The position numbers were made by a program, and so were the translations under genes. Below the pieces are notes generated by a model. It worked only from the letters and a program-made list of their open reading frames with translations, was not told the DNA's origin and ran no database searches. This document shows, piece after piece, positions 35,542 through 56,891 of a DNA stretch of 64,000 bases. This stretch comes from Candidatus Levybacteria bacterium RIFCSPHIGHO2_02_FULL_40_18. Its GTDB lineage: Bacteria > Patescibacteriota > Microgenomatia > Levybacterales > GWA1-39-11. Location of the stretch: the NCBI GenBank assembly GCA_001782235.1, contig MFOC01000003.1, forward strand, positions 47,851 to 111,850, in the 5' to 3' direction. How positions within the stretch are numbered: position 1 is the first letter of the stretch; the number at the start of each line of letters is the position of its first letter.

Positions 35542-36822
35542 ATGCTCTGTTATAATTACTCCATGTTGAAAAAAGAATGGGCGATATCAACCTTTATAAT
35601 TGCAGTATTCCTATTAAGAATTCCCCCTCTATATTTTACCGGCATTAAGAATATATTTCTCACCACACATTCTATAGTGGTTTTAACAATTCCCCTGATT
35701 TTTCTTTACTTGTTTTCCCAAAGATTATACTATAAAAAGAGACTACCCTATTTAAATACTCCCGAAGCTTTATTTGTAGTTATTTTTTTTGCAACACAAT
35801 CTTTGTCTATATTTGGGGCTTCAAATGTTGAAATTTTCCTTCAGAGATACGTAAAGATTATTTTTGGGATTATTGTCTTTATTGCGGTTAAAGAACTCGT
35901 TGCAATAGATAAAAAGATAATCTACAAAGTCCCTATAGCAATTATAGCGGGCGGTTTAATAACATTTGGACTACAGTTGATACTCTTTTTTGCACCTGAT
36001 GTCTATTTCCAATTAGGAGAAACTCTGATTTATAAAAACGTTTACAGCATTACTATTACTAACTTCTCCGTAGGAAAAATCTTTGATGACTCTTTCCTTC
36101 AAACGGTTACCCCCTTTATTATTTATTACCTTGCTTCCAGTAAAAATAAACTTATAATTCCTGTTTTGGTTTCTGCAATGGTGGGAATGGGAATGGTAGA
36201 TTTTGCTTCTAACTTTAGATATAGGGTCATAGCATATGTTGTCTCTCTTGCATCTTCTCTTGGCCTTATTTTTAGGTTCAAAAGAAATTTAATAATTGTT
36301 ATCGGTATAGTTTTTTTAATATTTTTAGTGCTACCTAATGTCGATAAATACTTGAGGCAAAATGTGGGTTTCAGTTTCGTTGATAGAATATTACTGGAGA
36401 GTGAAACTAGAGATATTGCTAGCATCGAATGGCGGCTTAGTGCTTTTGAACAGTCGATACAAATGGCAAGCACGAATATTTTTGGGGTGGGACTTGGTAA
36501 TTTTTTTGATAAATCTCAATTTGTAAACATCCCAAAAACTAACTTTCCCAACTATACTATCACTATTGAAGCTTTGAAAGCCGGGCCTCACAATATATTC
36601 TTTCAGATATTGGCAGAGACAGGACTTCCGGGATTAACATCGCTTGTGATTCTACTTGCATATTTTGTCCGTAAAGACCTGCATATAATCAAAGATAAAA
36701 TGAGCGGGATAAAAACCGCTTATGTGCTTGGTTTTTGGACTCTAATTTTGATAGGTCAGTTTTTCCCAACAAATAATTTTACTTTTTTTACACTTTTCTT
36801 CCTTTTTAGAGGCGCTCTATAG
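35542..36822 (+). CDS. O-antigen ligase/polysaccharide polymerase-like membrane protein (second paralogue)
   Basis: Multi-TM. KAGPHNIFFQILAETGLPGLTSLVILLAYF ligase loop. The true start may be an internal Met, because the listed start abuts the divergent GT4 start. Confidence 0.55.
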   Translation: MLCYNYSMLKKEWAISTFIIAVFLLRIPPLYFTGIKNIFLTTHSIVVLTIPLIFLYLFSQRLYYKKRLPYLNTPEALFVVIFFATQSLSIFGASNVEIFLQRYVKIIFGIIVFIAVKELVAIDKKIIYKVPIAIIAGGLITFGLQLILFFAPDVYFQLGETLIYKNVYSITITNFSVGKIFDDSFLQTVTPFIIYYLASSKNKLIIPVLVSAMVGMGMVDFASNFRYRVIAYVVSLASSLGLIFRFKRNLIIVIGIVFLIFLVLPNVDKYLRQNVGFSFVDRILLESETRDIASIEWRLSAFEQSIQMASTNIFGVGLGNFFDKSQFVNIPKTNFPNYTITIEALKAGPHNIFFQILAETGLPGLTSLVILLAYFVRKDLHIIKDKMSGIKTAYVLGFWTLILIGQFFPTNNFTFFTLFFLFRGAL

Positions 36823-37245: not shown

Positions 37246-38271
37246 TTGTCTACGCAAAAACATAATTTTTTTATGTTTGCAACTTTTATGGAGAAAGAGG
37301 CTATAAAATCGTCCTTTTTACCTTATCCTGACATTCCTCCTATTATCGAACTTGACCCATTCCTAGCAACCTTGCGTAAAATAGAAAAAATTACTCCCCT
37401 TTATGACGGGGTCGCTCATTGTCTATTTCGAGTTCAAGCTGATGGAAAAAGCTTTTTTTTGAAAATCAGAGGTGATCACTTTCCAAGAATACCTGAGATA
37501 ATTACAAATCCAGAAGATATTAAAAATGAATATAAAGCGCTTAGCATATACGGTTCTTTGCTGCCGGATAATTTTCCTCAAGTCGTCTCATTCAATAATA
37601 ATGCTCATTATCTAATAACATCAGATGCTACATTTAATGGTGAGCTTTTCTTAGAAACTTTAGTAAGAGGAGATGTTACAAGAGAAATAGCCTTTAGTCT
37701 CGGACGCACGTTAAGAAGTATTCACGATTCCACAGGTCAACATACGGAAGACCTAAGAAGCGAGGGAGATAGTTTTCATTATGATCAAAAGTTACTGCAT
37801 AGATTTGGATTCCTTCGAAATGTTGGCCTTGATGAAATGGTCCAGAGATTAAGACAAGAAGAAAGGCAATTAGTTTTGGGAGACCCCGCTCCTAAAAATA
37901 TTGGAATGAATAATGATGGATCACTTTTTGTATTTTTTGATTTAGAGGATGCGCATCAAGGAAATCCTGTGTTTGATTACGGTTACTTACTCGGTCACAT
38001 TATATTACATAACTGCCTAATGCCTGGAAAAGCAATGGATTTAATTCAAGGGTATACCGGCGGTTATAACGGTCATGCTTATGACGAGGATATGGTTAAA
38101 AAAATAGCGCTGGGAACGATAAGATATCGCTTGGCAGGACGGATTCCTTATGAAGCACCAAATATTCCCTTTGACTTAAGGTCGGATATTTTAGGTAGCA
38201 TTGAAAACTTTCTTTCAGTCGATCTAGGCAAGGTGAATTGGGACTTTATTTTAGCTAATATACCACAATGA
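37246..38271 (+). CDS. Phosphotransferase (APH/choline-kinase-like) family kinase
   Basis: VLGDPAPKNIGMNNDGSLFVFFDLEDAHQGNPVFDYGY matches the Brenner motif and D-x-E region of APH-type kinases. Confidence 0.5.
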   Translation: MSTQKHNFFMFATFMEKEAIKSSFLPYPDIPPIIELDPFLATLRKIEKITPLYDGVAHCLFRVQADGKSFFLKIRGDHFPRIPEIITNPEDIKNEYKALSIYGSLLPDNFPQVVSFNNNAHYLITSDATFNGELFLETLVRGDVTREIAFSLGRTLRSIHDSTGQHTEDLRSEGDSFHYDQKLLHRFGFLRNVGLDEMVQRLRQEERQLVLGDPAPKNIGMNNDGSLFVFFDLEDAHQGNPVFDYGYLLGHIILHNCLMPGKAMDLIQGYTGGYNGHAYDEDMVKKIALGTIRYRLAGRIPYEAPNIPFDLRSDILGSIENFLSVDLGKVNWDFILANIPQ

Positions 38272-39710
38272 ATAATCTGAACTTAATGCTTATTGGAGTA
38301 GGACCACATGCAAGAAGAATATACTATCCCATTTGTAAAAAGGAAGAAAGTCTTGGGGTTAAAATAATTTGCGGAGTTGATTTAGTTGAGAAAAAGGATG
38401 AAATTGAAAGGTTTCTTGATCTAAAAGAGGACAAGCTACCTATGCTTTATATCTCAAACAATACATACACTAAGGCATTACCGAACGAAGAAAGAGAGAA
38501 GCTAAATAAACTTGTTAAAAAATATAAGATTAATGGTGTTATCATCTCGACGGATCCTTTGGCTCATCTACGATATGCACTATGGGCAATTGATCAGGGC
38601 CTTCACATCTTGATGGATAAACCAATTTCAGCTGTTCCTTACGCCTCAACTGATGAACATGCTGCGGAGGATATTGTTTCTGATTTTTATCTTTTAAAAA
38701 ATCGCCATGAGAAAAAGGGAGCCAAAAAAATTGTTAGCATAATGACTCAAAGGCGATTCCACCCAGCATATACAAAAATTCGTGAACTAGCCGAAGATGT
38801 TTTTAAAAAAACTAATTGCCCAATTACATCTGTTCAGACTTTTCATTCTGATGGTCAGTGGCGTCTTCCATCTGAAATAGTGGATATTGACTACCATTCA
38901 TTTAATCATGGTTTTGGTGAGCTGTTACATTCTGGGTATCACTCATTAGACATTATTTGCTGGTTATTAAGTTCGACTCGAGGAACAAAGAAAGAAATAA
39001 ATAATGTGGATATTTTCTCACAGATAGTACGTCCTACAGATTTTATCTCACAAATAAACTTTCCCGATTATAAAAATTTGTTTGCAGACTTTCCAAAGGT
39101 CAACAAATACTCTGAGAAGGATTTCAGAAATATAACCAAAAAATATGGAGAGATAGACGTTTTTGTTAATTTTGCATTTAAACATAACTCAGACGTAATA
39201 ACTTTAGGCAGCTCGAACTTAGTGCATAATGGTTTTTCCCAACGTGGGTGGCTTATGCCTAAAAAAGATATGTACAAGGGGAACGGAAGAGTTAGACAAG
39301 AAACTATATTTATTGAACAAGGCCCTTTTCAGTCAATCTCCCTAGTTTCATATCAATCAAGCGAGATTAACAAAGACTCAAACAGTGGCATTTTTGATGT
39401 GGGTGGAGAGTACCATTTGGATATTCATGTTTTTAGAAATAGCAGTTTTTACCCAAAATGGAAAACCTATGAAAAATTATCGATTAAAGACTTATCGAAA
39501 AGTACGTTGGAGGGATATTCAAGAGGCCATCAAGAAGACGCAAGAAGAAATGCAATAATTGACTTTATAGAATCTGCAAAAGGTAAGAGACTAAGCCAAG
39601 TATCGAATTTATTGGATCATGAATTTGGTGTTAAACTTATTAGCGGAGCGTACCTTTCAATGGCAAGAAAGATTCACTCCAAGAACCCAGTTGTAAATAT
39701 TTCTCTTTAG
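38268..39710 (+). CDS. NAD(P)-binding oxidoreductase, Gfo/Idh/MocA-like (divergent, 480 aa)
   Basis: N-terminal Rossmann-like LMLIGVGPHARRIYYPI. Start overlaps the upstream stop (ATGA). Confidence 0.35.
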   Translation: MNNLNLMLIGVGPHARRIYYPICKKEESLGVKIICGVDLVEKKDEIERFLDLKEDKLPMLYISNNTYTKALPNEEREKLNKLVKKYKINGVIISTDPLAHLRYALWAIDQGLHILMDKPISAVPYASTDEHAAEDIVSDFYLLKNRHEKKGAKKIVSIMTQRRFHPAYTKIRELAEDVFKKTNCPITSVQTFHSDGQWRLPSEIVDIDYHSFNHGFGELLHSGYHSLDIICWLLSSTRGTKKEINNVDIFSQIVRPTDFISQINFPDYKNLFADFPKVNKYSEKDFRNITKKYGEIDVFVNFAFKHNSDVITLGSSNLVHNGFSQRGWLMPKKDMYKGNGRVRQETIFIEQGPFQSISLVSYQSSEINKDSNSGIFDVGGEYHLDIHVFRNSSFYPKWKTYEKLSIKDLSKSTLEGYSRGHQEDARRNAIIDFIESAKGKRLSQVSNLLDHEFGVKLISGAYLSMARKIHSKNPVVNISL

Positions 39711-39716
39711 AACTAG

Positions 39717-40406
39717 ATGAAGTTTAAAATACTAAATGAGTCTAACCTCAAAAAGGCATCTGGCCTTGTTATTATTGTTGACGTTCTTCGTGCATTCACT
39801 ACTATTTGTTACGTTTTCTCAAATAAAGCAGATAAGGCAATTCTTGTAAAAGGCCCTGAAGAGGGTTTGTTGTTAAAGAGAGAGAATCCTAACTATGTTT
39901 TAATTGGTGAGCGTGGAGGTTTTAAACTTCCAGGATACGACTATGGAAACTCTCCTTACGAGCTAAAGAAGGTTAACTTTTCAGGCAAAACTATTGTTAT
40001 GACAACTTCTCAGGGAACTGCATTTTTCTACAGACTTAGTAAACACTCAGAGTGTAAAGAGCTTATTACTGGAAGTTTTGTCAATGCGTCTTCCATAGTT
40101 AATTATATTAAGCAAAATAAGTATAAAACTATAACATTTGTTTGTACAGATAATTCATATCAAAACAATGAGGATTATATGTGCGTTAAGTATTTAATCA
40201 GTTGTCTAAAAGGAAAACCCCTTAACTTTCAAGAAATAAAAAAGGATTTAACGAAACATCCCGTTGCCGAAAGGTTTATTAAAAAACCCTTAACAAAGCA
40301 TGCTCCGTATGATTTCGAGTTGTCTTTGCAATTGAATAAATTTAGTTTTATAATAAAGGCGAACATGTCAACCAAGCGCATAATTTTAGAACAGATAACT
40401 CTATGA
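39717..40406 (+). CDS. 2-phosphosulfolactate phosphatase (ComB) family protein
   Basis: LVIIVDVLRAFTTICYVF N-terminal motif and ~230 aa length are typical of PF04029. Confidence 0.45.
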   Translation: MKFKILNESNLKKASGLVIIVDVLRAFTTICYVFSNKADKAILVKGPEEGLLLKRENPNYVLIGERGGFKLPGYDYGNSPYELKKVNFSGKTIVMTTSQGTAFFYRLSKHSECKELITGSFVNASSIVNYIKQNKYKTITFVCTDNSYQNNEDYMCVKYLISCLKGKPLNFQEIKKDLTKHPVAERFIKKPLTKHAPYDFELSLQLNKFSFIIKANMSTKRIILEQITL

Positions 40407-41869
40407 GCGCTGAAAATAGGCAAGGGGCTCCAGATAGATTTACGCTCCGTAAAGAATACTTCGGAGGTTTAGTACTTGATTCCCATACTCCTAAAAACGA
40501 ATTTCTTAAGCCTCAAGAATATGAATTTTTAAGCCGACTGAAAGAAGCAGAAGGAGTGTTTTTTGATGCAGTCTTAGAAAGCAACCCAGACCTTACACAA
40601 AGAGTTAATGCGTTTGCTGAGACTGGATTTGTTGAAAAAGGGCCAAATGGAGAAATTATTTTAACAAATATTAGACTAGTCCCTCCACCAGATCAAATAC
40701 GCCATGGGGTCCTTACTGCCCCGATACGTGTTTATGATATGTATACTCGAAGATGTAATCTTGCCTGTGAACACTGCTATGCGGCTAGTAATCCATTTAT
40801 AAAAGAGGACAGACGTACTCTTGAGCAGACTGCTGATATTATGAAGAAATTTTACGATGCTGGAACTATCGAGTGGCGTTTTACAGGAGGAGAACCAACC
40901 GTATACCCTGACTTATTCGATGCAATAGATGTCGCTCAAGGGTTGGGCATGAATGTAAGCATGAATTCAAACGGATGGTGGAGTGAAAAAACTGCACAAA
41001 AGATACTTGAATCTGGAATTAGTGAAATGGTAATTAGTATTGAAGGTGAACCTGGAACAAACGATTTAAGAAGGAAAGTAGGTTCTTACAATCACGTAAT
41101 AGATGCACTTGATAAGGTAGCACATCATAATAGATTTTACTCTGATAAAAAGATAGATGTCGTAATAAATACGGCGGTCGGTAGGGACAATATAAACGAT
41201 GCAGAATTTGTCGTCCGTTTGGCTGCTAAATATGGACATAACGTAAACTTTCTTCCATTAAAACCAAGCGGGAGGGCAAGACATGGTCTCCAATCTGTAA
41301 TGTTAAGTACCAGAGAATGGATGGAATTCTCGAGAAAGGTTCAACAGTTAAGAACTGATCCAGAGATACAAGCCTCGGGTATTAAGCTCACTCATAGATA
41401 CAAGGATCTTTTTTGTCCAACAGCACCTGACCAATCTGGAAAACCTTATCCGTTTAATTATGCAGAATGTGGAGCAACAACAACTGCTATAAGCATGTTC
41501 CCTGATGGAAGAGTTTTTGCTTGTCCCTTTGTGATTGAGTTTGATGTTAGAAATGAATTTGTAGGACCAAATATGATCACTTCGTCAGTTGAAGAAGCTT
41601 GGAATCACGTAAACATTGATAAATTCAGGACAGCAGAAAAAACTCAAGGTTGCACCGATTGTAGCCATTTATCGAAAAGGTGCAGGGGAGCTTGCAAGGC
41701 AACAGTTTTGGGATATGGCGGTGAAATAAAGGATGGAAAATTGGTTGGAGAAGACCCATATTGTTACGTTTCTTTAATAGATGAAGAGGACACAATGATA
41801 CAAGAAAGTAAGGCTCGAGGCCGTCAAATGTTACCATTTATACAGCTTGATGACATCCCCACACTATAA
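40403..41869 (+). CDS. Radical SAM/SPASM-domain enzyme with an N-terminal RRE-like (wHTH) domain. Putative peptide-modifying maturase.
   Basis: CNLACEHCY (CxxxCxxC) at about residue 118. FTGGEPTVYPD. C-terminal auxiliary-cluster cysteines (CPFVIEFD...CTDCSHLSKRCRGACKA...CYVS). The ~100 aa N-terminus YFGGLVLDSHTP...LSRLKEAEG resembles RRE domains. Confidence 0.75.
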   Translation: MSAENRQGAPDRFTLRKEYFGGLVLDSHTPKNEFLKPQEYEFLSRLKEAEGVFFDAVLESNPDLTQRVNAFAETGFVEKGPNGEIILTNIRLVPPPDQIRHGVLTAPIRVYDMYTRRCNLACEHCYAASNPFIKEDRRTLEQTADIMKKFYDAGTIEWRFTGGEPTVYPDLFDAIDVAQGLGMNVSMNSNGWWSEKTAQKILESGISEMVISIEGEPGTNDLRRKVGSYNHVIDALDKVAHHNRFYSDKKIDVVINTAVGRDNINDAEFVVRLAAKYGHNVNFLPLKPSGRARHGLQSVMLSTREWMEFSRKVQQLRTDPEIQASGIKLTHRYKDLFCPTAPDQSGKPYPFNYAECGATTTAISMFPDGRVFACPFVIEFDVRNEFVGPNMITSSVEEAWNHVNIDKFRTAEKTQGCTDCSHLSKRCRGACKATVLGYGGEIKDGKLVGEDPYCYVSLIDEEDTMIQESKARGRQMLPFIQLDDIPTL

Positions 41870-42348: not shown

Positions 42349-42720
42349 GTGACTTTTATGACATCGATCCTTCTATCTAAGGCAAGGAGAAGATTAGCGG
42401 CAAAAGACCCTCACAATGTGTTCGCAAGCACTTTTGCAGAAACGGGATTTCTAGGGCTTGGTTCTCTAGTTTTATTACTTTTGTATTTTCTTCAAAAAGA
42501 CATCGGAATCATGAAGAGCAGTAACGATCTATCGAAAACATTTGTTGTTTCTTTCTGGACACTTTTTGTTTTTGCGCTTCTTAACCCTTCCTCATCGATT
42601 ATCTACCAGACTCTCTTTTGGCTTTTGAGGGCACTTATTGAAAAATCACCAAAGTTAAGATCGCGTGATTCATTCAATCTTACTGACAATGTAGTTGTCG
42701 AAGACAAAGGTGGGGGTTGA
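42349..42720 (+). pseudogene. C-terminal fragment of an O-antigen-ligase paralogue that runs into repeat R2
   Basis: DPHNVFASTFAETGFLGLGSLVLLLLYFLQKD...FWTLFVFALL is about 50% identical to the C-terminus of 35542..36822 and lacks the N-terminal ~300 aa. Confidence 0.5.
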
Positions 42721-42723
42721 AAT
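42610..42723. repeat. 114-bp direct repeat R2 (right boundary of the cassette). The minus strand encodes ...STPTFVFDNYIVSKIE*
   Basis: Near-identical to R1 (36864-36977). Confidence 0.7.
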
Positions 42724-43033
42724 ACTCAACTTCTTACCGCCATTTCAGATACTACGATTAGCAACGTAATAATCAATCAATCTCCTAATCATGGCTTGAT
42801 AAGAAGCGCTCTTAATTCTGGCTGCTTTTTTAAAGAAGTCAACGCTCTTTTTACTCAAAGCAAGTGTTACTTTTACTTTTTCCTCGCGCAAAACAAGATC
42901 TTCGGGTTTTGGTAAAAAATCCCTTATGGCTTTTGCCTCAAAGGGTTCATTTGTGTATTTTATTTTGGGGCCATTATTTATTTTGCTGGTGTTGGTTCAA
43001 AAGGTAAAAGAATATATCAAACCATAGATTAAC

Positions 43034-44308
43034 CTAGCGAGGTCTTGCTTTCTTAGGAGGTTGCATAGTTATTGGGCCTCTAACTAGGGTTAGAAAATTT
43101 TCTTGATTAAAATATTGATTAGCAACCCTTTTAACATCTTCGGCAGTTACCTTTTCTATTTCCTTTTTTATATAATCTGTACTTAAAATTCGCCCTTCTG
43201 TGGCATACGTTGTAGCGTGCCATTGGGCAATAGAGTCGGGGGTCTCAAGAGAATAATACATATTTGAGATGTCTAAAATCTTGGCAACATTAATTTCATT
43301 TTTTTCAATTTTCCCCTCTCTTAACTTTGCTAATTCTTCATGAATGCATGTAAGGGCACGATCTACATTAACAGGAGAAAAACCACCATAAGCAATAAGC
43401 ATCCCTGTATCTTTAAACGTCCAATTCCAAACCCATGTGCTATACGCTATCCCGAGTTCATAAACTAGTTTATTAAATAAACGCGAGCTTGTACCCCCAC
43501 CAAGAATATCTGCAATAACCCGCATAGCGAATCTATCCGGGTGGAGATAGTGTATCCCAGTCACTGTGCCTATCATTAATAGAGCTTGTTGACTATTTGA
43601 ACGTATTTTTTTGATTTTTTTTATGGGAGGCAAAAAGGCAACTTTCTCAATCTCTCTTTTGCTCTTTATAGTTCCCTTGCCGAAATATCTTTGAATATAT
43701 TGATTGAGTTCACGGATATTAAATTTACCCACTATAGAAATCGTCATATTTGATGGATAATAAAAGTTATTAAGGTAATCTCTTAATTGGCTAGGGTCGA
43801 TATTTTTGATGGTAGATCTTTCTCCTAAGGTTGACCTTCCCAAGGCCTGCTCCTTTCCCCAACAGTATTCCATAAACAAATCCCATATCTCTATTTCAGG
43901 AGTATCCTCTTTCCTCTGAATTTCCTCGAGAATTATGCTCTTTTCCCTCTCAACGGATGTTTTATCAAAAGCTGGATTGAATAATATCTCCGAAAGGTAA
44001 TAGAGCCCTTTCTCAAGATATTCTTTGGGAACCTTCACATTATAGGCAATATATTCTTTATCAGTCCACGCTCCGCTTTTCCCTCCGATAGATTCTATAA
44101 CCTGAGCTAATTCTTTTGCTGTCGGATATTTTCTTGTTCCTTCAAATAACATATGCTCTAGAAAATGAGCATGCCCAGCAGATATCTTTGATTCATATCT
44201 TGGTCCGGCATTAACCGCAACATAAATCGCAATTGAATTAACCCAAGGCACCTGTTGAGTAATTACAGTTAACCCATTGCTCAATTTTTGAATCTTAGCC
44301 TTTTCCAT
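43034..44308 (-). CDS. M16 (insulinase/pitrilysin) family zinc peptidase. Candidate leader peptidase of the adjacent RiPP locus.
   Basis: HxxEH zinc motif (GHAHFLEHMLFEGT). About 420 aa with two M16 halves. Confidence 0.7.
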   Translation of the reverse strand: MEKAKIQKLSNGLTVITQQVPWVNSIAIYVAVNAGPRYESKISAGHAHFLEHMLFEGTRKYPTAKELAQVIESIGGKSGAWTDKEYIAYNVKVPKEYLEKGLYYLSEILFNPAFDKTSVEREKSIILEEIQRKEDTPEIEIWDLFMEYCWGKEQALGRSTLGERSTIKNIDPSQLRDYLNNFYYPSNMTISIVGKFNIRELNQYIQRYFGKGTIKSKREIEKVAFLPPIKKIKKIRSNSQQALLMIGTVTGIHYLHPDRFAMRVIADILGGGTSSRLFNKLVYELGIAYSTWVWNWTFKDTGMLIAYGGFSPVNVDRALTCIHEELAKLREGKIEKNEINVAKILDISNMYYSLETPDSIAQWHATTYATEGRILSTDYIKKEIEKVTAEDVKRVANQYFNQENFLTLVRGPITMQPPKKARPR

Positions 44309-44309
44309 T

Positions 44310-45065
44310 TTATTTACCGAGTGCTATCATATATAAAGGGTATTCCCTAATATTCTCAATATCAAGCAGGGATATAATTTGAGATTCAATAAATCCACCA
44401 ATTGGGCAACTTCTTAAACCTAATTCAGTTGCCAGAAGACATATATTTTGGGATAAGTGTCCGGCCTCAATTAACATATACCTGAACTCCCGATCTCCAT
44501 ATTTTATTCGACTCCTATCAGGGATGCCTGTAATTATTATTAAAAAATTTGCATCTAATATCCACTTTTCATTACCCGTACAGGCAAGAACCCATTCCCC
44601 CATGTCTTCTATCAGTAATGCCTCTAGCGCGTTCTCTTTTACATTATAATGATACAATCCCTGCTTTAAACTTTTTACGCCTAATGGAATTAGATATACT
44701 TCTAACGGATATCTCGCTCCCGCAGAGGGGTATGACCGTCTTGAATCATCCATATCTTTTGGCTCAAAAATAAGCCCGGCAACTGTGTATATTAAACTAG
44801 ATAATAACTTGAATGATATATCTTTTTTAATAAACAATCTTGTTGATCGCCTGCTTGATAATGATTTTATTTTTTTAGATAACGCTTTTTCAAGGACAAT
44901 TTTCGGCATACGAGGATAGGTTTTAAAATGAATTGTTATCCACTCTTGGGGAATGACTTCAACACTGTCCTCAAAACTTATGTTTTTAGACTGTTCATAA
45001 AAAACATCAGAGGCGTTTGCTTGTCCGTTAATAAATTCCGCAATTTTCTTTTTCAGTTTTTTCAT
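44310..45065 (-). CDS. SagB-type (nitroreductase-fold, FMN) dehydrogenase, azoline oxidase-like
   Basis: ARYPLEVYLIP...GLYHYNVKENALE...FRYMLIEAGHLSQNICLLATELGLRSCPIGGF are diagnostic SagB/McbC-type motifs. Confidence 0.7.
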   Translation of the reverse strand: MKKLKKKIAEFINGQANASDVFYEQSKNISFEDSVEVIPQEWITIHFKTYPRMPKIVLEKALSKKIKSLSSRRSTRLFIKKDISFKLLSSLIYTVAGLIFEPKDMDDSRRSYPSAGARYPLEVYLIPLGVKSLKQGLYHYNVKENALEALLIEDMGEWVLACTGNEKWILDANFLIIITGIPDRSRIKYGDREFRYMLIEAGHLSQNICLLATELGLRSCPIGGFIESQIISLLDIENIREYPLYMIALGK

Positions 45066-46396
45066 AAAAAGGGATGGGGAATATTATTCAGCTTTTCCTC
45101 TGTCTTGGGCTTGTATCCCATTTTTTCGGGAGAATCAAACAATCTCATTTTGCCAAAATATTTATACCGTTCATCCAGATAAATAGGTTGTAATTCGGGC
45201 GAAACTACCTTAACCACGTGGACTGGATAATCTTTAAATATTGAACTTGTAATTTCTGCGAAGTAGAAATTTACTCCTTTATCTTTTAGGATTTTGGCGA
45301 TTTTATATAAGCTCTCTTGTGCTTCTGTAGTTCTAGAATTGAGTTTGATATTAATTAAATCGCTATTAAGCCAGAAATTTAGATTTTTAATCATTTGTGG
45401 AGAAAACCAATAATATGCTCTGTCCTCTATGGTTCTGATGTCACTTCTTGATTTGTACCTTTTTAGGTTTCTACCAAGAATGACTTTGTCCCTGGTCCAT
45501 GATCTTGTCATCAAGGACTCTTCTATAGCTCCTACTATTACGTTTCTTTTGTCTAGCCCTGCCTTTAAACCAACTGATATTGACGGACCCAATCCTGTTC
45601 TATCTATAATTATTGCACAGACTGAAAAAATTGATAAATCATTGGTAATATTAATCAAATAAACTTCGAGTTGGTACCTTTCTATTTTATTAATAATATC
45701 ATTAATATATAAATCCCTAATACAATTAAGATTTATTCTTCTGCACGGAATTTTATTGAGGTATGCTACCATGAATGAATCTCTTTCGATTAACTCACAA
45801 ATTCCTCTATATATCGCTGTTTCTAGAGTGTCAGCACATGCAGCTCCTGAAGATGTTCCAAATTGAAGCATAGGCTCCATTCTCTCCCATTTATAAGGTA
45901 CATAAATTAATTGCGCTGGCAACAAAAAGTTATTTCCAATAAAAACATTTTTTGATTCGACCCATGAGTAATTTGCATATAAATATTCTTCTTTTTTTAA
46001 TTTTAATCTTTTGATTTGGGGATCTGAGAAAGATAAAAACAAGAGAGGACTAAGCATTTTACTTTTCTCATATTTCTTATTTTTTATAAGAGGTCTCTCT
46101 CTGTCATCTGAAAGAGAAAATCTCTCTATTAATTCGCCAAATAGCTTTTGCAATGCAGATGTTTGTGAAAATGATGTTCCACTAGCAATAGCATCTTCTG
46201 TTCCCTTATTCTTTCTCTCTTTAAATGAAGTATTATATTGAAAAATTTTAGGCTCATCATTATAAAAAGGGGCTCTATGAAAACCATGGAATATATGAGG
46301 ATATTTTTTAAGGAGATCAAAACCTATATCAATTATATCTTGTGAGTTTTTACCCATAAAGGAATACTTAAGCCTGTTTTGGGGCAGATAATCCAA
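45062..46396 (-). CDS. YcaO-domain protein (ATP-dependent cyclodehydratase or amide-activating enzyme)
   Basis: ASGTSFSQTSALQKLFGELIERFS and FGTSSGAACADTLETAIYRGICELIERDSFMVAYLNK (ATP-binding E-x2-ER motifs). Ends ...NIPHPFL. Translationally coupled to the downstream dehydrogenase (4-nt overlap). Confidence 0.8.
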   Translation of the reverse strand: MDYLPQNRLKYSFMGKNSQDIIDIGFDLLKKYPHIFHGFHRAPFYNDEPKIFQYNTSFKERKNKGTEDAIASGTSFSQTSALQKLFGELIERFSLSDDRERPLIKNKKYEKSKMLSPLLFLSFSDPQIKRLKLKKEEYLYANYSWVESKNVFIGNNFLLPAQLIYVPYKWERMEPMLQFGTSSGAACADTLETAIYRGICELIERDSFMVAYLNKIPCRRINLNCIRDLYINDIINKIERYQLEVYLINITNDLSIFSVCAIIIDRTGLGPSISVGLKAGLDKRNVIVGAIEESLMTRSWTRDKVILGRNLKRYKSRSDIRTIEDRAYYWFSPQMIKNLNFWLNSDLINIKLNSRTTEAQESLYKIAKILKDKGVNFYFAEITSSIFKDYPVHVVKVVSPELQPIYLDERYKYFGKMRLFDSPEKMGYKPKTEEKLNNIPHPFL

Positions 46397-46404
46397 GCGT
46401 TATT

Positions 46405-46620
46405 TTATTTACCTTCTCGTATCTCAACGGTTATTCTGCAACGTTGAGTGCAATGTCCAGGAACAGGAGAACGACAAGGACCGGGAGGGGGATTAGGAGG
46501 AAGCGGCGGCGGAGTTCCGCATCTCGAAACCATAGATTCTCCTTTCAATTCACTTGGAAGCCCTGATGTGAATTCCTTCGCATCAGCAATGACTCTTTCA
46601 ACTGTCTCTATATTTGACAT
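46405..46620 (-). CDS. Candidate RiPP precursor peptide (71 aa) with a Pro/Cys-rich C-terminal core
   Basis: MSNIETVERVIADAKEFTSGLPSELKGESMVS | RCGTPPPLPPNPPPGPCRSPVPGHCTQRCRITVEIREGK. Near-consensus SD (taAGGAGGTGAtaacta ATG). Ends 9 nt upstream of the YcaO start. Confidence 0.5.
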   Translation of the reverse strand: MSNIETVERVIADAKEFTSGLPSELKGESMVSRCGTPPPLPPNPPPGPCRSPVPGHCTQRCRITVEIREGK

Positions 46621-46936
46621 TAGTTATCACCTCCTTATTTAAGGAATACTTGTTACTAAGGTGATCTGCAATTATAGGAAGACTCTCTTCTAAAGGCAGC
46701 TGTGTACTTATTTGCCTTGCTCATGAAGTAACTAAAATATATCACAATTTAGAAACACTTGTCAATTTTTCGTTCTGTGTAAACACATATGAGACACTTT
46801 CCATTAGAATAACTCATCAGGAAAGTAGGTGTTTGTTTTGCTGGTGTTGGTTCAGAAGGTAAAAGAATATATCAAACCATAACTTAATATACGATCTTTC
46901 TTTCTTTCTTTTTGGGGAATTATGGGCGTAATCTAA

Positions 46937-47230
46937 TTACTCGGCGATACCGTCGTAGATAAATTTCTTAATCAGTGCCTGATATGGAATATCCATTTTG
47001 TGAGCCTCTACTTTAACCCTATCGATTAAACCAACCGGTAGGCGAATTGTAATAGGCTTAGTAGTAAGTTTTAAATTTGGGAAAATTACATGCCTTGCAG
47101 TTGAATAATCTACATACTCTGTTGAGTCTACTTTTTGCCAGAACTCTCTTTCCTCTTTTTCTGTTTTAAATTTTGGTATTGGCTTTAGCTTTTTTTTCTT
47201 CATACAACCTCCTTTCTTTTTTATTTGCAA
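46937..47230 (-). CDS. brnA: BrnA-like antitoxin (RHH/CopG-type). Probable true start at the internal Met MKKKKLKPIPKF.
   Basis: EEREFWQKVDSTEYVDYSTARHVIFPNLKLTTKPITIRLPVGLIDRVKVEAHKMDIPYQALIKKFI matches the BrnA family pattern. Confidence 0.55.
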   Translation of the reverse strand: MQIKKKGGCMKKKKLKPIPKFKTEKEEREFWQKVDSTEYVDYSTARHVIFPNLKLTTKPITIRLPVGLIDRVKVEAHKMDIPYQALIKKFIYDGIAE

Positions 47231-47519
47231 GTCTTGCAGAAATTATCCTTATCTTGTTATCTCTTTTTGTAAATACCGTGAACAACGTTCTGTTATCATT
47301 TGACTTACCTATTCCTATAAATCTTCCTTCCTCCTTAGAATGTTTTATGTCATCTTGGAAAAAAAGATATTTATCAACAAATACTTCCTCTGCTTCTCTT
47401 GGAGTAATTCCGTGTTTTTGATAGCTTTTGTCAACATTCCACTTATCCCATTCAAATCCGGTAATCTTACTCAAATCCGTCACTGTACATATATTACATG
47501 TACAAGTACGTGTTGTCAA
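47166..47519 (-). CDS. brnT: BrnT-like toxin (DUF497 ribonuclease)
   Basis: FEWDKWNVDKSYQKHGITPREAEEVF...IRIISARLANKKERRLYEE matches DUF497 motifs. Confidence 0.6.
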   Translation of the reverse strand: MTTRTCTCNICTVTDLSKITGFEWDKWNVDKSYQKHGITPREAEEVFVDKYLFFQDDIKHSKEEGRFIGIGKSNDNRTLFTVFTKRDNKIRIISARLANKKERRLYEEKKAKANTKI

Positions 47520-47547
47520 GCACTAAACCTCTGTGGACGTCACAGTT

Positions 47548-47599
47548 ACTCAATTTTACTGACGATGTAGTTGTCGAAGACAAAGGTGGGGGTTGAAAC
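47548..47599. repeat. R3, a third copy of the conserved 3' gene-end element (minus strand STPTFVFDNYIVSKIE*) abutting the AbiEii gene
   Basis: cagttactcaattttactgacgatgtagttgtcgaagacaaaggtgggggttgaaaca. Confidence 0.6.
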
Positions 47600-47618
47600 A
47601 CTTATTGTTTCCTTTTGT

Positions 47619-48260
47619 TCACTCTAATTTTCCCTTCATATAGGTTTCGACCTCTTGTTTCAAGGTCGAAGTAATTTGTTCGTAAGAGTAATTTTCTCCT
47701 ATAAATTCTATCGGCGTTTGTTCAAGGTCTTCAAAATATACGAGTTGCTCAAGAAATTGAACCTCAACAAAAAAACTACCGCATTTTTTTACTGCGAATT
47801 TTACTATATCGTCAAGTGTCAACAGTCTCTTTTTTAGAACAACAAAAATATCAACATAATCGCGCCAGGTTGCTCGTCTTCCGATGGTGTACGCTTTGTC
47901 AGCTGCTATATCCTTTACACTTGCTAAAGCAAGGTACGGTGTTTCTACTCGCGGGAACGCGGGTTTGAAATCCTGCACAACAAATGTTATGCCAATATTG
48001 CTTTTAAGAATAGTAAAGGTTACTTGCTCGGAAGTATTCCATTTGTAGATAACTTTCCCGAATTTCTCCCTTATTTTATTTTCTAATGATTTTTTAATTG
48101 GATCGTCTACAAATATATCAAAGTCATAAGAAGTTCGATGCCCTATTTGAAGTGCAAGGGCGGTTCCGCCGGCAAGATATCCTTCATCTCGGAAGTCTAC
48201 TAGCTTCTTTAATATCTCTCTGCGGTCATGGTCTAATATCTCGAGGAATATTTTTGACAT
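47619..48260 (-). CDS. Nucleotidyltransferase, AbiEii/AbiGii toxin family (DUF1814)
   Basis: RREILKKLVDFRDEGYLAGGTALALQIGHRTSYDFDIFV is the conserved AbiEii N-terminal block. Confidence 0.6.
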   Translation of the reverse strand: MSKIFLEILDHDRREILKKLVDFRDEGYLAGGTALALQIGHRTSYDFDIFVDDPIKKSLENKIREKFGKVIYKWNTSEQVTFTILKSNIGITFVVQDFKPAFPRVETPYLALASVKDIAADKAYTIGRRATWRDYVDIFVVLKKRLLTLDDIVKFAVKKCGSFFVEVQFLEQLVYFEDLEQTPIEFIGENYSYEQITSTLKQEVETYMKGKLE

Positions 48261-48537
48261 ATAAGAGTTCGCTCATATCACGATCTTCAAGATTTAGGAG
48301 TATATTTTTAACGAAATAAAAGCGTGCTTTTCGATAATCTTTAAATGCCGTGGTTGTGAAAGTTTTTATAATCTGTGAGGCTCCATATTTCTCAAACAAC
48401 CAAAGGATTTCATCCAATCCTCCGTAAGATAGTATCTGATGAATAATATAGTTCTTATCCCGTTCAGAATTGAGCTTACGCACACCACTGGACCATAAAA
48501 CGCTTTGAAGTTTCTGAGGAATTTTTTTTTGCTGCAT
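48226..48537 (-). CDS. Hypothetical small protein upstream of AbiEii. Possible cognate antitoxin-like partner.
   Basis: Overlaps the AbiEii start. No confident domain. Confidence 0.25.
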   Translation of the reverse strand: MQQKKIPQKLQSVLWSSGVRKLNSERDKNYIIHQILSYGGLDEILWLFEKYGASQIIKTFTTTAFKDYRKARFYFVKNILLNLEDRDMSELLYVKNIPRDIRP

Positions 48538-52868: not shown

Positions 52869-53672
52869 ATGGATGAAATTTACGTAAATATAGCCGATTT
52901 CAATATACTAATCAAAATCCAGCCGCAGGAAACTACCAACAATCCGCCTTACGATTTCATCAGAAACAGACTGTTAACCGATTTGGTTTCTTATTTAGGT
53001 CAATTTATAATTTTAGAAAAGCCTGGAAAAGTTGATTTTGAAATTAATTTTATTGAAGCATGGAACTTACAAATACTGCGAGTCAAAAGTGACAATATCA
53101 GTTACATTCCTCTTTATGAAGAAATTTCGTCGTCTAAGTTTTTAACCTATTTTTTAAACAGCATCTATCAATTCCAGTTAATCTTAAAATACGCTGTCCA
53201 TGAACTTTTGGACAAATCCAGTGGGTTTTTAATCCACTCTTCCGCCGTCAAAATCAACAACAAGGCTTACTTCTTCTTAGGCAAGTCTGCGGCTGGTAAA
53301 TCGACCATTGCCACAATGCTTGCTGACAGATACCCAAAAATCGCAGATGATACAAGTCTTGTTAAAAAAGAGGGTAATCAATTTTTTTTCTACCAAACTC
53401 CATTTTTTGACAAAAATTGGGTCAATAAACACTCCGAGAGATTAAAAATGGGCAAAATGTTTTTTTTAAAAAAAGCCAATTTCTTTAAAGTAGAGAAAAT
53501 CGAAGATAAAGAGCAAATTCTCAACTATTTCTTGAAGGGTTATGTCGTTAACCTCAACAAAATCTCAACCAAAAATGTACTAAAATTTGTCAATAAATTC
53601 GACAACTTCTACATGCTTTACTTTGCAAAAAACCCGGAGAAAACAATAAGACTAATTGAATCCCTTAAATGA
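52869..53672 (+). CDS. HPr-kinase/phosphorylase-like P-loop protein (the RiPP-associated HprK-like kinase type)
   Basis: FLGKSAAGKSTIATMLADR P-loop in the C-terminal half. 267 aa. Overlaps the start of the PqqD-like gene. Confidence 0.4.
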   Translation: MDEIYVNIADFNILIKIQPQETTNNPPYDFIRNRLLTDLVSYLGQFIILEKPGKVDFEINFIEAWNLQILRVKSDNISYIPLYEEISSSKFLTYFLNSIYQFQLILKYAVHELLDKSSGFLIHSSAVKINNKAYFFLGKSAAGKSTIATMLADRYPKIADDTSLVKKEGNQFFFYQTPFFDKNWVNKHSERLKMGKMFFLKKANFFKVEKIEDKEQILNYFLKGYVVNLNKISTKNVLKFVNKFDNFYMLYFAKNPEKTIRLIESLK

Positions 53673-53920
53673 TCAAACTCAAAAAAGGCATAGTCTCTCA
53701 AAAAGTCGGTCAAAAAACCACCATTTTTGACGGCGAGAAGTCAGTTCTTTATACTTTTAACGAAACGGCATCATTCATATTTGACCAGCTCAAAAAAGAG
53801 GCAAAATTGGAAAAAATTGTAGATTTGATGGCAAAAAAATTTAATGTCAAAAAAGAGACTGCAAAAAACGACGTTGAAGAATTTGTCAAAACCTTAAAAG
53901 CTAAAAAAATTGTTTCCTAG
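53669..53920 (+). CDS. PqqD-family protein, RiPP recognition element (RRE)
   Basis: LYTFNETASFIFDQLKKEAKLEKIVDLMAKKFNVKKETAKNDVEEFVKTLKAKKIV matches the PqqD fold pattern (L..N.TA..IW..L.G..T..EI...L...Y.V..E.A..DV..F...L). Confidence 0.55.
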   Translation: MIKLKKGIVSQKVGQKTTIFDGEKSVLYTFNETASFIFDQLKKEAKLEKIVDLMAKKFNVKKETAKNDVEEFVKTLKAKKIVS

Positions 53921-55362
53921 TAGCCGATTGACCTAAGATCACCTGCGCTGTCATCTTCGGTAGAAAACTGTCCGGGTACTTCATTGCTCTTCCATTCAAT
54001 TGGCAGGTTGTAATCGGAAAGATATTCTAAAAGGTCATCCCGGAGTTTTCCCAGTTCCTTTGTCCTTTCGCCGGCCAAATTTTTTGTCTCGTTGGGATCG
54101 GCCACAAGGTCATACAGCTCTTCGTGCCAACTTTCAAGAAGACAGGACTGCGGCAAGGAATAGATATACTTTAAATTGTCCCTGACAATTGCAAACTTGG
54201 AAAAATAGCTGTTGGCAAAAATAGCCCTTTTTCTGGGCGCCGGTATTATTTTGGAGAATTTACCGAATTGTCCTGCAAAACTCTTTCCGTCGAAACTGCC
54301 CTTTTTATAATCAATGCCCAGAAAATCCAAAATGGTCGGCAAAATGTCAACATCTTGTATCAAAACGTCTGATTTTTCCCCCGATCTGCCCTTGGCTGGA
54401 TCAAAAATTATAAGCGGAATCTTGATCGATGAATCGTAAAGAACCTGCCTGTGGTTGAAATAATAGTTGTGATCAAATCCTTCTCCGTGGTCGCCGTATA
54501 AAACCACCAGGGTGTTTTTATCAAGACCCAGCTCTTTAAGATTATCCAAAATTTTACCTACCAGTCTGTCGGCCGCAGCAACCTCGCCATCGTAAAGAGC
54601 CTCCATAAGCTCTATCCTGTCTTGAGGAACCGGATTATTTTGGCAGGATTGATACTGGGCCCGAAGTTCTTCAAGTTCCTCAAGGTTTTTGCCAGAAATT
54701 TCATCGCAGAATTTACTGTTAAATTTGCACCTCAAACCCCCGGGGGCAAAGTAGGGTGCGTGGGGATCGACAAGATGCACCCAGAGAAAAAACCGCCCTC
54801 CATCCTTGCTGCTTTTCAAAATGTCGGCAGAACTTAAAATAAATTTCTCGTAATCTGCCCTTTCGGTCATAGTAAACCTTTCGTTATATTCCGCCTTTGC
54901 GCCATTGTAGTAAAACGATTTGAACTCATGGGTATTGAATACCTCAAACCCCTGATCCAAAGCACTGCCGATGGTGGAATAACCCGCGGTAAAAAACCCG
55001 TTTTGGGCAAGAATACTTGTCAAAGTTTTGTTGTTCTCACTGACCAGAAGACCTGAATTTGAAATAATTCTGGTCTTTGCCGGATCCTTGCCGGTAAAAA
55101 GAGCCGCCATCGAAGGATGAGTCATGGGAACGGCTGTAGCGGCGTTGGTAAAGACTGCTGCGCTTTTTGCCCACTTGTCAATATTGGGAGTCGTATCTTT
55201 TCCATAGCCATATACGCCCATATGGTCAGGGCGTAGGGTATCAATTGAAATTAGAAGAAGATTTTTAGGGTGAGTTGGGGTAAATACGAATTTCCAAACG
55301 AGAGCGAGAAACAAAAAAAGTGTTGAATATATTACTATCCGCCTAAATTTAACTTTGAGCAT
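53917..55362 (-). CDS. Sulfatase-like (PF00884) exported hydrolase or transferase, paralogue of 29481..30899
   Basis: LLISIDTLRPDHMGVYGYGKDTTPNIDKWAKSAAVFTNA. YGDHGEGF. The nucleophile region reads ATAVPMTHPSMAALFTG, with Thr where sulfatases have the formylglycine Cys. Confidence 0.7.
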   Translation of the reverse strand: MLKVKFRRIVIYSTLFLFLALVWKFVFTPTHPKNLLLISIDTLRPDHMGVYGYGKDTTPNIDKWAKSAAVFTNAATAVPMTHPSMAALFTGKDPAKTRIISNSGLLVSENNKTLTSILAQNGFFTAGYSTIGSALDQGFEVFNTHEFKSFYYNGAKAEYNERFTMTERADYEKFILSSADILKSSKDGGRFFLWVHLVDPHAPYFAPGGLRCKFNSKFCDEISGKNLEELEELRAQYQSCQNNPVPQDRIELMEALYDGEVAAADRLVGKILDNLKELGLDKNTLVVLYGDHGEGFDHNYYFNHRQVLYDSSIKIPLIIFDPAKGRSGEKSDVLIQDVDILPTILDFLGIDYKKGSFDGKSFAGQFGKFSKIIPAPRKRAIFANSYFSKFAIVRDNLKYIYSLPQSCLLESWHEELYDLVADPNETKNLAGERTKELGKLRDDLLEYLSDYNLPIEWKSNEVPGQFSTEDDSAGDLRSIGY

Positions 55363-55366
55363 AAAT

Positions 55367-56620
55367 TTATCTTACCATCTTTATGCTTTTTACGCGATTT
55401 AAGAAAACCCAAATTATCGTATAAATCACCTGTTTGTCTAAAAAAACCATTACCTTTCTAAAAAAGGGCTCCGGCGATAAATAGAATAAATTTTTAAAAC
55501 GCTCAATTCCCGAATTAATCCTTTGTTCTTCATCAAATATATTTAGCTTATAAAGCATTTTTCGAACTCTGGCAAAACTGCTATCAGGTCTAATGTCATT
55601 CAGAAAATCACGATCAAAATTTAGTCCGTAGTATTTTTGCAAGATAAGAAAAACAGGATATATGAAATTCATAAGCTTATATTCTTTAGCGAGTTTTGCA
55701 ATTTTAGAAAAATTTTGTTGTTCTTTTGAAATAATGCTCTTCATAAAATCATATCTATAAGCCCCTTTAAAATTATGATGGTAAAGATGAAGGGCTAGAT
55801 AAATTAATAAGTTTTCAGAAGAAAGAATTGGAAATTTATGACTCCAAACACTAACATCTCTTTTTTCTCTTAGAAATTTTCCACTTAAACTATTCAAAAG
55901 ACTCTGCGGGTAAAGAGCATTAAGTTCCCCAAGTTGTGTCATCATAAATACAACCTCAAGATGAATATCGAAAAAGATTGGAAATCCTTTAACTATTTTC
56001 AAGAAATTAACTTCCGGACTTTTATTTTTAAGTCTTCCCAGAGTCTCGGACAATGATGAGTCGAATTCTTTGAAGCCTAATTTTCGTAAAATCGTCTTTG
56101 CGCGAGAAAAAAATTTTGGGCTAATTAAAATGTCGCAGTCGGCATAAATGCGTCTCGGGTGCTTGCCCTCATGGTAAAGGTGGAGAGGCAGACCTTTGAG
56201 AAAAACGAATTTTATTCCTGTCTTCTCAAGCGTTCTTTTAACTTTTACTATTTCGCCAAAATATAGTGTTGATTGAATAAGATAAAGGTCGTCGATGCTA
56301 AATTCGTTCCTTCCCCTTTTTATTTTATATACAACACCGATTACGTTTTTTGGGTAAATCTTCCCATCGGAAGTTTGATTATTCTCCCCTTTTGTTATTA
56401 AGTACTTATCTGTTTTGTAAACCACTCTGTGGGTGAAGATCCTGTCGCCCTGCCTGCCGGCAGGCAGGCCTTTTCGCACGCAGACAATATCATTAACGGC
56501 AATTCTGTCAAATCGTTTTTTTGCAAGATAAACGACGTCGCCGTCCCAAAGTAGCGGGAACATACTCTCACCGTAAGTCTTAAACGCAGAAATCTTTGAA
56601 ATATTTGCAACCTTAATCAC
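55367..56620 (-). CDS. Fusion protein: N-terminal S24/S26-type peptidase-like domain plus an uncharacterised nucleotidyltransferase (PF14907-like) domain
   Basis: N-terminus YGESMFPLLWDGDVVYL is LexA/signal-peptidase-like (GxSMxP). The remaining ~300 aa resemble the uncharacterised nucleotidyltransferase family found in RiPP clusters. Confidence 0.4.
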   Translation of the reverse strand: MIKVANISKISAFKTYGESMFPLLWDGDVVYLAKKRFDRIAVNDIVCVRKGLPAGRQGDRIFTHRVVYKTDKYLITKGENNQTSDGKIYPKNVIGVVYKIKRGRNEFSIDDLYLIQSTLYFGEIVKVKRTLEKTGIKFVFLKGLPLHLYHEGKHPRRIYADCDILISPKFFSRAKTILRKLGFKEFDSSLSETLGRLKNKSPEVNFLKIVKGFPIFFDIHLEVVFMMTQLGELNALYPQSLLNSLSGKFLREKRDVSVWSHKFPILSSENLLIYLALHLYHHNFKGAYRYDFMKSIISKEQQNFSKIAKLAKEYKLMNFIYPVFLILQKYYGLNFDRDFLNDIRPDSSFARVRKMLYKLNIFDEEQRINSGIERFKNLFYLSPEPFFRKVMVFLDKQVIYTIIWVFLNRVKSIKMVR

Positions 56621-56687
56621 TAAGATATTTTAACACGCAGGCAAGCCCGTAATTGTTTCATGTTGTACTAAAGTCTTAAAGAAAAAT

Positions 56688-56891
56688 CTAGGAGGCACTA
56701 TTGGTCATAAGGCACAGAGCACAGGTGGTAGAACCACATGAGGCACAGGTGATAAGAGTGTTACATGAACCTTGCGCATACACAGACGATCCGAAGAGTT
56801 CTTCCGCTGAATCGATAAACCTGCTACTTAAAAAGAAGTTTATCTTGACTCTTTGCTCTTTTATCGCAGGCTTGCTGTATTTTTTTTTCAT
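56688..56891 (-). CDS. Candidate RiPP precursor peptide (67 aa) with a Cys/Ser/Thr-rich core
   Basis: MKKKYSKPAIKEQRVKINFFLSSRFIDSAEELFGSSVYA | QGSCNTLITCASCGSTTCALCLMTNSAS. The start overlaps the stop of the upstream 168-aa gene (ATGA). Confidence 0.55.
   Translation of the reverse strand: MKKKYSKPAIKEQRVKINFFLSSRFIDSAEELFGSSVYAQGSCNTLITCASCGSTTCALCLMTNSAS

Follow-up and report, generated by a model that had tools for sequence, protein, structure and literature searches.

Gene clusters predicted to make linear peptides that contain azol(in)es (LAPs) have been reported from bacteria of the candidate phyla radiation (CPR). The passages of Sharrar et al. 2020 (mBio 11:e00416-20, PMC7298704) that deal with them describe a cluster from Microgenomates_ANG_785 with a YcaO, a nitroreductase and a peptidase, and show an 84-aa example precursor, its Ser and Cys highlighted, that adjoins the YcaO. 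The same passages report 110 LAP clusters in 93 further CPR genomes, 89 of the clusters with a nitroreductase beside the YcaO, as prediction only. Here we analyzed a 64,000-nucleotide stretch of the genome of Candidatus Levybacteria bacterium RIFCSPHIGHO2_02_FULL_40_18 (the window), in which an operon of four genes encodes a 71-aa candidate precursor, a YcaO protein, a SagB-type dehydrogenase and an M16 peptidase. An earlier note on this DNA had proposed a compact YcaO operon for a peptide that is ribosomally synthesized and then modified post-translationally (RiPP), and our analysis supports that proposal, with an adjacent genuine precursor, a dehydrogenase of the SagB type and an M16 peptidase of the active type. 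The operon shares with the clusters of Sharrar et al. the YcaO, the adjacent nitroreductase, the peptidase, the small precursor by the YcaO and the CPR host. In contrast, those passages are silent on the DAKEF leader, a Pro/Cys-rich family of cores, the lack of a C/F partner, an M16 assignment for the peptidase and flanking repeats (PMC7298704). The cluster type is thus already on record as a prediction, and the window operon is a partner-less, M16-coupled variant of this known CPR LAP cluster type.

Other known systems resemble the operon in part. Like McbBCD of microcin B17 it has a D-type YcaO, a B-type dehydrogenase dependent on flavin mononucleotide (FMN) with a catalytic Lys-Tyr, and a leader-bearing precursor encoded alongside. 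However, it lacks the McbB-like scaffold with E1 and RiPP recognition element (RRE) regions, its putative leader protease is M16B rather than TldD/E (M103), its core is Pro/Cys-rich rather than Gly/Ser/Cys-rich, and genes for transport or immunity are not linked to it. In a 2023 review the leader proteases given for LAPs are TldD/E (M103), and M16 enzymes appear for class III lanthipeptides only. PttP1 and PttP2 of class III lanthipeptides are also M16 zinc peptidases for RiPP leader removal but are heteromeric and act in a lanthipeptide context, whereas a single M16B gene stands in a YcaO operon here. The closest solved YcaO domains are those of LynD, TruD and MusD (profile E 1e-26 to 2e-29; query-normalized TM-score, TMq, 0.76-0.77), whose P-x-P-F ending aligns with that of the window YcaO; those proteins are fusions of ~775 aa with an N-terminal E1-like/RRE region, while the window YcaO has 431 aa and is the fold only. 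The nearest cultured relatives (~28% identity) lie on plasmids in haloarchaeal 'haloazolisin'-type YcaO + SagB/ThcOx clusters, in which a SagB-type dehydrogenase is adjacent (Cox et al. 2015, PMC4603692). A Halorubrum plasmid locus, the only one examined, has an adjacent 'TOMM precursor leader peptide-binding protein', unlike the CPR operon, and no M16 peptidase within 5 kb of the YcaO. Stand-alone YcaOs of bottromycin share with the window enzyme the lack of a C/F partner (PMC4603692), but bottromycin is by description made with a follower peptide, macroamidine/thiazoline chemistry and no SagB-type dehydrogenase.

On the basis of homology, motif conservation and comparative genomics we consider it likely that the window operon is a self-contained, minimal LAP-type pathway, which would lead to a proline-rich, thiazole-containing peptide.

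Operon layout and enzyme motifs

The four genes and the signals ahead of them are as follows.

46405-46620, minus strand: 71-aa precursor open reading frame (ORF), with no Pfam or NCBIfam match
45062-46357, minus strand: YcaO cyclodehydratase or D protein, with 431 aa when read from the ATG at 46357 (PF02624, TIGR03604)
45062-46396, minus strand: alternative reading of the YcaO from a TTG start at 46396, 444 aa
44310-45065, minus strand: SagB-type FMN-dependent azoline dehydrogenase (B protein), 251 aa (TIGR03605, PF00881)
43034-44308, minus strand: M16B-type zinc peptidase, 424 aa, putative leader peptidase (Peptidase_M16 and M16_C)
46627-46636, minus strand: Shine-Dalgarno sequence AAGGAGGTGA, read from the sequence 6 nt ahead of the precursor ATG
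46736-46765, minus strand: promoter-like site, TTGACA and TATATT spaced by 18 nt plus a TG extension, ~115 nt ahead of the precursor ATG

All four ORFs are co-directional and lie where the earlier note placed them, and the near-perfect Shine-Dalgarno sequence that it saw before the 71-aa ORF was found again as a strong one. Its account of the junctions held in two of three cases: the YcaO stop and SagB start overlap by 4 nt (ATGA), and 1 nt separates the SagB stop from the M16 start. The third, given as 9 nt, is really 8 nt from the precursor stop to the TTG of the YcaO, or 47 nt to its ATG. We favored the ATG at 46357 because it is the start given by NCBI and fits the N-termini of the orthologues. 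The promoter-like site matches 11 of 12 consensus positions and is the top of 21 sigma-70-like matches in 42600-47700; the evidence for it is this consensus match, and shuffled sequence is expected to give at least as many matches in all. An intrinsic terminator was not found downstream, and no RNA gene came up when the region and the entire window were scanned with Rfam and for tRNAs. The same context is present in 24 contigs of this organism, which come from several samples.

The earlier note had suggested scoring with hidden Markov models, which assigned all three enzymes to their families. The YcaO matched PF02624 over its full length (E 3e-44) and is 100% identical to a 431-aa protein of Candidatus Levybacteria bacterium RIFCSPLOWO2_01_FULL_40. 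In 25 homologues there is no variation at residues E75, E78, R79, E188, E191, R192 and D193 or in the C-terminal HPFL, and the ExxER and ExxERD motifs are found together with a C-terminal IPHPFL in 24/24 members of this family. The motif ELIERD aligns with ELVERD of LynD. We take the conserved acidic residues to be ATP/Mg ligands, a residue-level assignment in keeping with the conservation of the motifs. The acidic nucleotide/Mg motifs, on which the earlier note had made its assignment depend, are kept. At the C-terminus N-N-I-P-H-P-F-L aligns with N-P-T-P-M-P-F of LynD, and the N-x-I-P-H-P-F-L ending is nearly invariant across the clade; a PxPxP C-terminal motif has been tied to azoline-forming YcaOs (PMC12338566).

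In the profile search of solved structures the M. jannaschii YcaO, which forms thioamides, came next after MusD, TruD and LynD (E 4e-20). An AlphaFold2 model of the window YcaO (pLDDT 88, pTM 0.91) had LynD as its top Foldseek match (E 2e-23, TMq 0.77) and is YcaO fold throughout, with no extra domain. The alignments cover only residues ~406-783 of LynD and MusD, with target-normalized TM-scores of 0.45-0.52. No relatives of this YcaO were found in phage genomes.

The dehydrogenase matched the SagB model TIGR03605 (E 7e-36) as well as PF00881. Its K188-Y189 align on the catalytic K201-Y202 of McbC, a Lys-Tyr pair that abstracts the azoline alpha-proton (PMC6395948), and 20 of the 22 dehydrogenases of this family carry the motif KY..R.YR. 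The peptidase matched both Peptidase_M16 (E 7.5e-31) and M16_C (E 3e-33). It carries the zinc motif H48-F-L-E-H52, with HxxEH in 22/23 orthologues, and E129 stands where we presume the distal zinc ligand to be, judging by the spacing in pitrilysin.

A conserved precursor family and operon

The 71-aa precursor has the leader motif D13-A-K-E-F17, a Pro/Cys-rich core with Cys34, Cys49, Cys57 and Cys61, and an xEGK tail at its end. Its core of 39 residues holds 11 Pro and 4 Cys, a composition that agrees with the proline-dominated, four-cysteine core of the earlier note. A word-indexed homologue search with the 71-aa ORF gave 2 matches only, as small ORFs are rarely called. The family was recovered instead by reading the DNA upstream of YcaO homologues and by profile search. 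Homologous small ORFs were found directly upstream of the YcaO in L001, L004 and L005, loci whose YcaO is 49-56% identical to that of the window, and protein databases supplied three further members (P0122, P0124, P0126). Other profile matches were long Pro-rich proteins that we judged to be low-complexity noise. In the close subfamily the common features are a D-(A/S)-K-E-F leader, an xEGK-like C-terminal tail and the core C-G-x-P-x-P-x-P-C-R-P-P-x-P-x-x-C-x-Q-R-C-R. GPCRxPxPGxCxQRC is common to the close relatives.

Distant precursors were read from DNA upstream of YcaO relatives of 31-44% identity, whose hosts are Roizman-, Davies- and Gottesmanbacteria and other Patescibacteria. Across the 18 precursors that we aligned, the comparison that the earlier note had proposed, D and F of DAKEF are invariant, K is present in at least 90%, and C34, C49 and C61 are each conserved in at least 90%. 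A leader motif of the FxxxB type was inconsistent across the family on inspection by eye. Related cores are dominated by Pro and Cys, and P-C dipeptides are very common (for example TPCKPPPCGAPPPPCGVPPPCRKPPPC... from L010). The window core has 4 Cys, and among the relatives seen the number reaches 9. Conservation does not extend to the Ser and Thr of the window peptide, and Cys is the sole constant feature of the related cores. These cores from distant relatives indicate that a proline-rich core is the norm for the clade and not an oddity of this locus, so that the earlier view of the core as unusual does not carry over to this CPR family, where Pro/Cys-rich cores are the rule.

Selection on the precursor was visible in a comparison of L001 with L004. 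Their core codons differ by 7 synonymous and 3 non-synonymous changes, their leader codons by 6 synonymous and 16 non-synonymous changes, and nucleotide identity is 80% in the precursor ORF and 56% in the 250 nt upstream. As judged from these codon counts, the precursor core is under purifying selection. The earlier note had also let the 71-aa ORF stand or fall with its conservation in orthologous loci; homologues are present there, and by its sequence relationships the small ORF is a real member of a conserved family of predicted precursors. We found no published description of a DAKEF/Pro-Cys precursor family in our literature search.

We then considered the operon as a whole. From 24 related loci, with flanks of up to 7 kb or less at contig ends, we clustered every ORF with 80 aa or more. 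The order precursor, YcaO, SagB, M16 is kept in ~20 of the 24 loci. No families other than YcaO, SagB and M16 occur in more than 3 of them, and 23 have M16 as the operon's third conserved enzyme. The M16 gene of L001 is broken into two ORFs and the dehydrogenase of L004 is also split, which indicates that copies of the operon do decay.

YcaO + SagB pairs were also seen outside bacteria. Four DPANN loci (L022, L024, L030, L031), in metagenome-assembled genomes of Aenigmatarchaeota, Woesearchaeota and Nanoarchaeota, encode pairs whose YcaO has 35-38% identity to that of the window. These pairs have Cys/Gly-rich small ORFs upstream and no M16. In a Bathyarchaeota locus (L025) an E1-like ORF lies upstream of the YcaO. 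The pairs in the DPANN genomes suggest that the YcaO/SagB core is shared between CPR and DPANN across domains.

Leader recognition and chemistry of the proposed pathway

In the pathway that we propose, the 71-aa precursor would be translated from its strong Shine-Dalgarno sequence, and the DAKEF-containing leader would direct it to the modifying enzymes, being read by the YcaO, the dehydrogenase or the M16 protein itself. At each Cys, the YcaO with ATP would activate the amide carbonyl of the preceding residue, in many cases Pro or Gly, and would cyclodehydrate Cys34, Cys49, Cys57 and Cys61 to thiazolines. These the SagB-type flavoprotein would oxidize to thiazoles, with a change of -20 Da per site and up to ~-80 Da in total. 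The M16B zinc peptidase may take off the leader during or after modification. The predicted peptide product is rich in proline, and its three or four isolated thiazoles would include several prolyl-thiazole units. This route from Cys through thiazoline to thiazole is the best supported one, given the motif and fold evidence for the YcaO, SagB and M16 proteins and the translational coupling of YcaO and SagB.

Several points weigh against it. The core has only 4 Cys in ~39 residues. The score of the YcaO against TIGR03604 (SagD), 215 bits, is just below the cutoff of 219, its C-terminus has two of the three prolines of PxPxP, the first being Asn (xxPxPF), and its start codon is ambiguous between the ATG at 46357 and the TTG at 46396. 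No linked transporter or immunity gene recurs in the 24 loci. The C/F partner with an RRE is absent, so that activity of the lone D protein on a leader-bearing substrate is an assumption, and characterized azoline-forming D proteins generally need such a partner.

The last point bears on the alternative that survives best, namely that this is a canonical LAP pathway that draws on an RRE protein from elsewhere, either the PqqD-like product of 53669-53920 or a C/F protein beyond the 64-kb window to which our view of the genome extends. We consider this improbable. The Pfam scan took in nearly all window ORFs of at least 90 aa outside the GC-rich stretch at 5400-8700, plus several smaller ORFs. 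As the earlier note had said, no E1-like, Ocin-ThiF or TfuA protein was found in the operon, nor among these scanned ORFs, and neither Pfam nor NCBIfam detected an E1-like, Ocin-ThiF or RRE domain in the four operon proteins. At 431, 251 and 424 aa the three enzymes equal bare catalytic folds, which leaves no room for an RRE in any of them. As positive controls we used two queries, the haloarchaeal 'TOMM precursor leader peptide-binding protein' and the E1-like ORF upstream of the Bathyarchaeota YcaO. Both detected C-type domains in many distant loci (L043-L087), where these are fused to the YcaO or lie immediately upstream of it. The window and all CPR-type loci gave no match to either query, even at E <=1. 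The neighbor clustering likewise gave no fourth recurrent family that could supply a partner.

The PqqD-family ORF is genuine (E 1e-15) and lies 7 kb from the operon, and the earlier note had raised the possibility that it acts in trans. However, homologues of this gene and of its ScmC/HPr-kinase-like, NTP_transf_5 and sulfatase neighbors occur only in loci of the other YcaO type (L033, L049, L086) and in none of the loci of the present operon type. Since it co-occurs only with the YcaO type of the window's first YcaO cluster, the PqqD gene most likely belongs to that cluster, and a role for it in trans is not borne out. Leader recognition in the window operon must then be non-canonical, as there is no RRE-bearing E1-like or Ocin-ThiF partner.

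The first YcaO cluster spans 52869-59480, with genes on the minus and plus strands, and loci L033, L049 and L086 have homologues of its accessory genes close to a YcaO of the YcaO1 type. Its genes are as follows.

58206-59480: YcaO
57430-58209: SagB
56888-57394: 168-aa ORF
56688-56891: 67-aa Cys/Ser/Thr-rich candidate precursor, ...GSCNTLITCASCGSTTCALCLMTNSAS
55367-56620: NTP_transf_5 protein
53917-55362: sulfatase
53669-53920: PqqD/RRE gene
52869-53672: ScmC/HPr-kinase-like protein

A second alternative keeps the operon self-contained and changes its chemistry: the YcaO would carry out thioamidation, or amidine or macroamidine formation, on the proline-rich backbone, and the nitroreductase-fold protein would have another role. 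Partner-less YcaOs are known elsewhere, as in bottromycin (PMC4603692), the core has few Cys, and the second-best NCBIfam match of the window YcaO is the McrA thioamidation YcaO. That match scores 70 bits, however, against 215 bits for the TOMM (thiazole/oxazole-modified microcin) model SagD, and no TfuA or sulfur-delivery gene occurs in the operon or among the recurrent neighbors in the 24 loci. The dehydrogenase, which would be left without a role, keeps the azoline-oxidizing Lys-Tyr pair of McbC and is translationally coupled to the YcaO. The YcaO itself is closest to the azoline-forming LynD, MusD and TruD, its top structural matches are heterocyclases, and Cys is the conserved feature of the cores. 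The earlier note had treated thioamides and amidines as being as likely as azoles; on these grounds we regard them as much less likely and this alternative as very improbable.

That the small ORF is not the substrate, with the enzymes modifying another protein or the cassette being a decaying, non-functional hitchhiker in a toxin-antitoxin island, hardly seems probable to us: the split genes in L001 and L004 and the lack of export and immunity genes would fit, but all four window ORFs are intact with complete catalytic motifs, the small ORF is always directly upstream of the YcaO and co-varies with its clade, its core is under purifying selection, and the arrangement recurs in the 24 contigs of this organism from different samples.

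Direct repeats, genomic surroundings and meaning

The operon is bracketed by two nested pairs of direct repeats.

46832-46887: upstream copy D1b of the 56-nt inner direct repeat, 211 nt ahead of the precursor ATG
42977-43032: inner direct repeat, downstream copy D1a, 93% identical to D1b, beginning 1 nt past the M16 stop
42674-42726: outer direct repeat D2a, 53 nt, overlapping the 3' end of a truncated O-antigen-ligase-like ORF
47550-47602: outer direct repeat D2b, 94% identical to D2a

D2a and D2b enclose the operon together with a BrnT/BrnA toxin-antitoxin pair and a BrnA-like fragment. The D1 pair has a BLAST score of 85 bits, and repeat matches between the upstream and downstream sides of the same locus score 51-108 bits, while the maximum in 380 mismatched-locus controls was 33 bits. 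Orthologous operons in five other loci are also bracketed, by repeats of 26-78 nt with 82-100% identity whose sequences are unrelated, and a sixth locus, L004, has several repeat elements. As in the window, a second pair is nested outside the first in L001.

L001: 4721-4779 and 8617-8675
L008: 6583-6639 and 10383-10439
L013: 5632-5709 and 10316-10393
L017: 6499-6534 and 10372-10407
L021: 5521-5546 and 9154-9179
L004: elements of 25-35 nt at 248, 845, 2709 and 6466

In L004 the repeat element also separates neighboring toxin-antitoxin cassettes. The long direct repeats that bracket the operon here and in six other loci suggest a mobile cassette. The simplest reading is that the operon would be a discrete, horizontally moved insertion, its repeats representing attachment (att) sites or a long target duplication, or else a cis-mobilizable element; the promoter and the four genes would then behave as a discrete insertion between direct repeats in a toxin-antitoxin-rich region.

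More familiar elements fit less well. An integron gene cassette was considered and rejected: the flanking repeats fold no better than shuffled sequences, one D2 copy excepted, and so are not attC hairpins, and no integrase domain, of the IntI type or other, was found among the Pfam-scanned window ORFs, although the start of an array could lie outside the window. Without hairpins, an integrase in the scanned ORFs or an RNA gene, neither an integron attC nor a tRNA-targeting island is supported. A classical transposon is unlikely because only 1 nt lies between the M16 coding sequence and the downstream repeat, so that a terminal inverted repeat would have no space there. An exact-match scan of Joint Genome Institute metagenome contigs for D1 gave 0 matches, and an empty site was not found.

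A 123-aa ORF at 42349-42720 (plus strand) resembles the C-terminal fragment of an O-antigen-ligase-type membrane protein, of which the window has full-length Wzy_C genes at 26137-27333 and 35542-36822. The last 47 nt of this ORF lie inside D2a and are duplicated in D2b, as would be expected if an element had inserted into the 3' end of the gene.

The two RiPP operons of the window are set in a dense group of toxin-antitoxin modules, namely BrnT/BrnA (46937-47519), AbiEii/DUF6922 (47619-48537), a PIN/HTH_17 pair (59717-60410) and a truncated BrnA-like ORF (42745-42891). The operons of L001 and L004 also adjoin toxin-antitoxin pairs (DUF4258/DUF2283, HicB-like, DUF6883/DUF4926). Immediately beside the cassette region, an operon at 37246-41869 (plus strand) encodes an APH-like kinase, a protein of 480 aa, a ComB-like 2-phosphosulfolactate phosphatase and, at 40403-41869, a radical SAM/SPASM enzyme. 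Further away, the stretch at ~5400-8700 stands at ~57% GC, compared with roughly 38% for the genome, and its AT skew is strong. It holds fragmentary Pro/Thr/Ala-rich ORFs with no Rfam match and may be foreign DNA or an assembly chimera.

A more far-reaching proposal, which we put forward tentatively and think possible rather than probable, is that the D protein, the B protein and the M16 peptidase form an autonomous, RRE-independent azole module. This module would move between CPR bacteria, and possibly DPANN archaea, as a promoter-bearing cassette with 26-78-nt target or att duplications in toxin-antitoxin-rich regions, and would give a new poly-proline/prolyl-thiazole class of products by way of DAKEF.

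Since clusters of this type were flagged earlier by genome mining, the finding refines that picture rather than overturning it. If a lone YcaO does heterocyclize a leader-bearing substrate without an RRE partner, the operon would be the smallest known LAP pathway; it would show how a leader can be recognized where the E1-like or Ocin-ThiF scaffold is missing, and so be of use in engineering. From the Pro/Cys-rich cores we predict peptides that contain prolyl-thiazoles and are polyproline-like, and to our knowledge no characterized LAP has a product of this kind. CPR hosts are ultra-small and episymbiotic, with very few genes for secondary metabolism. A cassette for a peptide toxin or signal that is conserved and apparently mobile in these bacteria would be of ecological interest.

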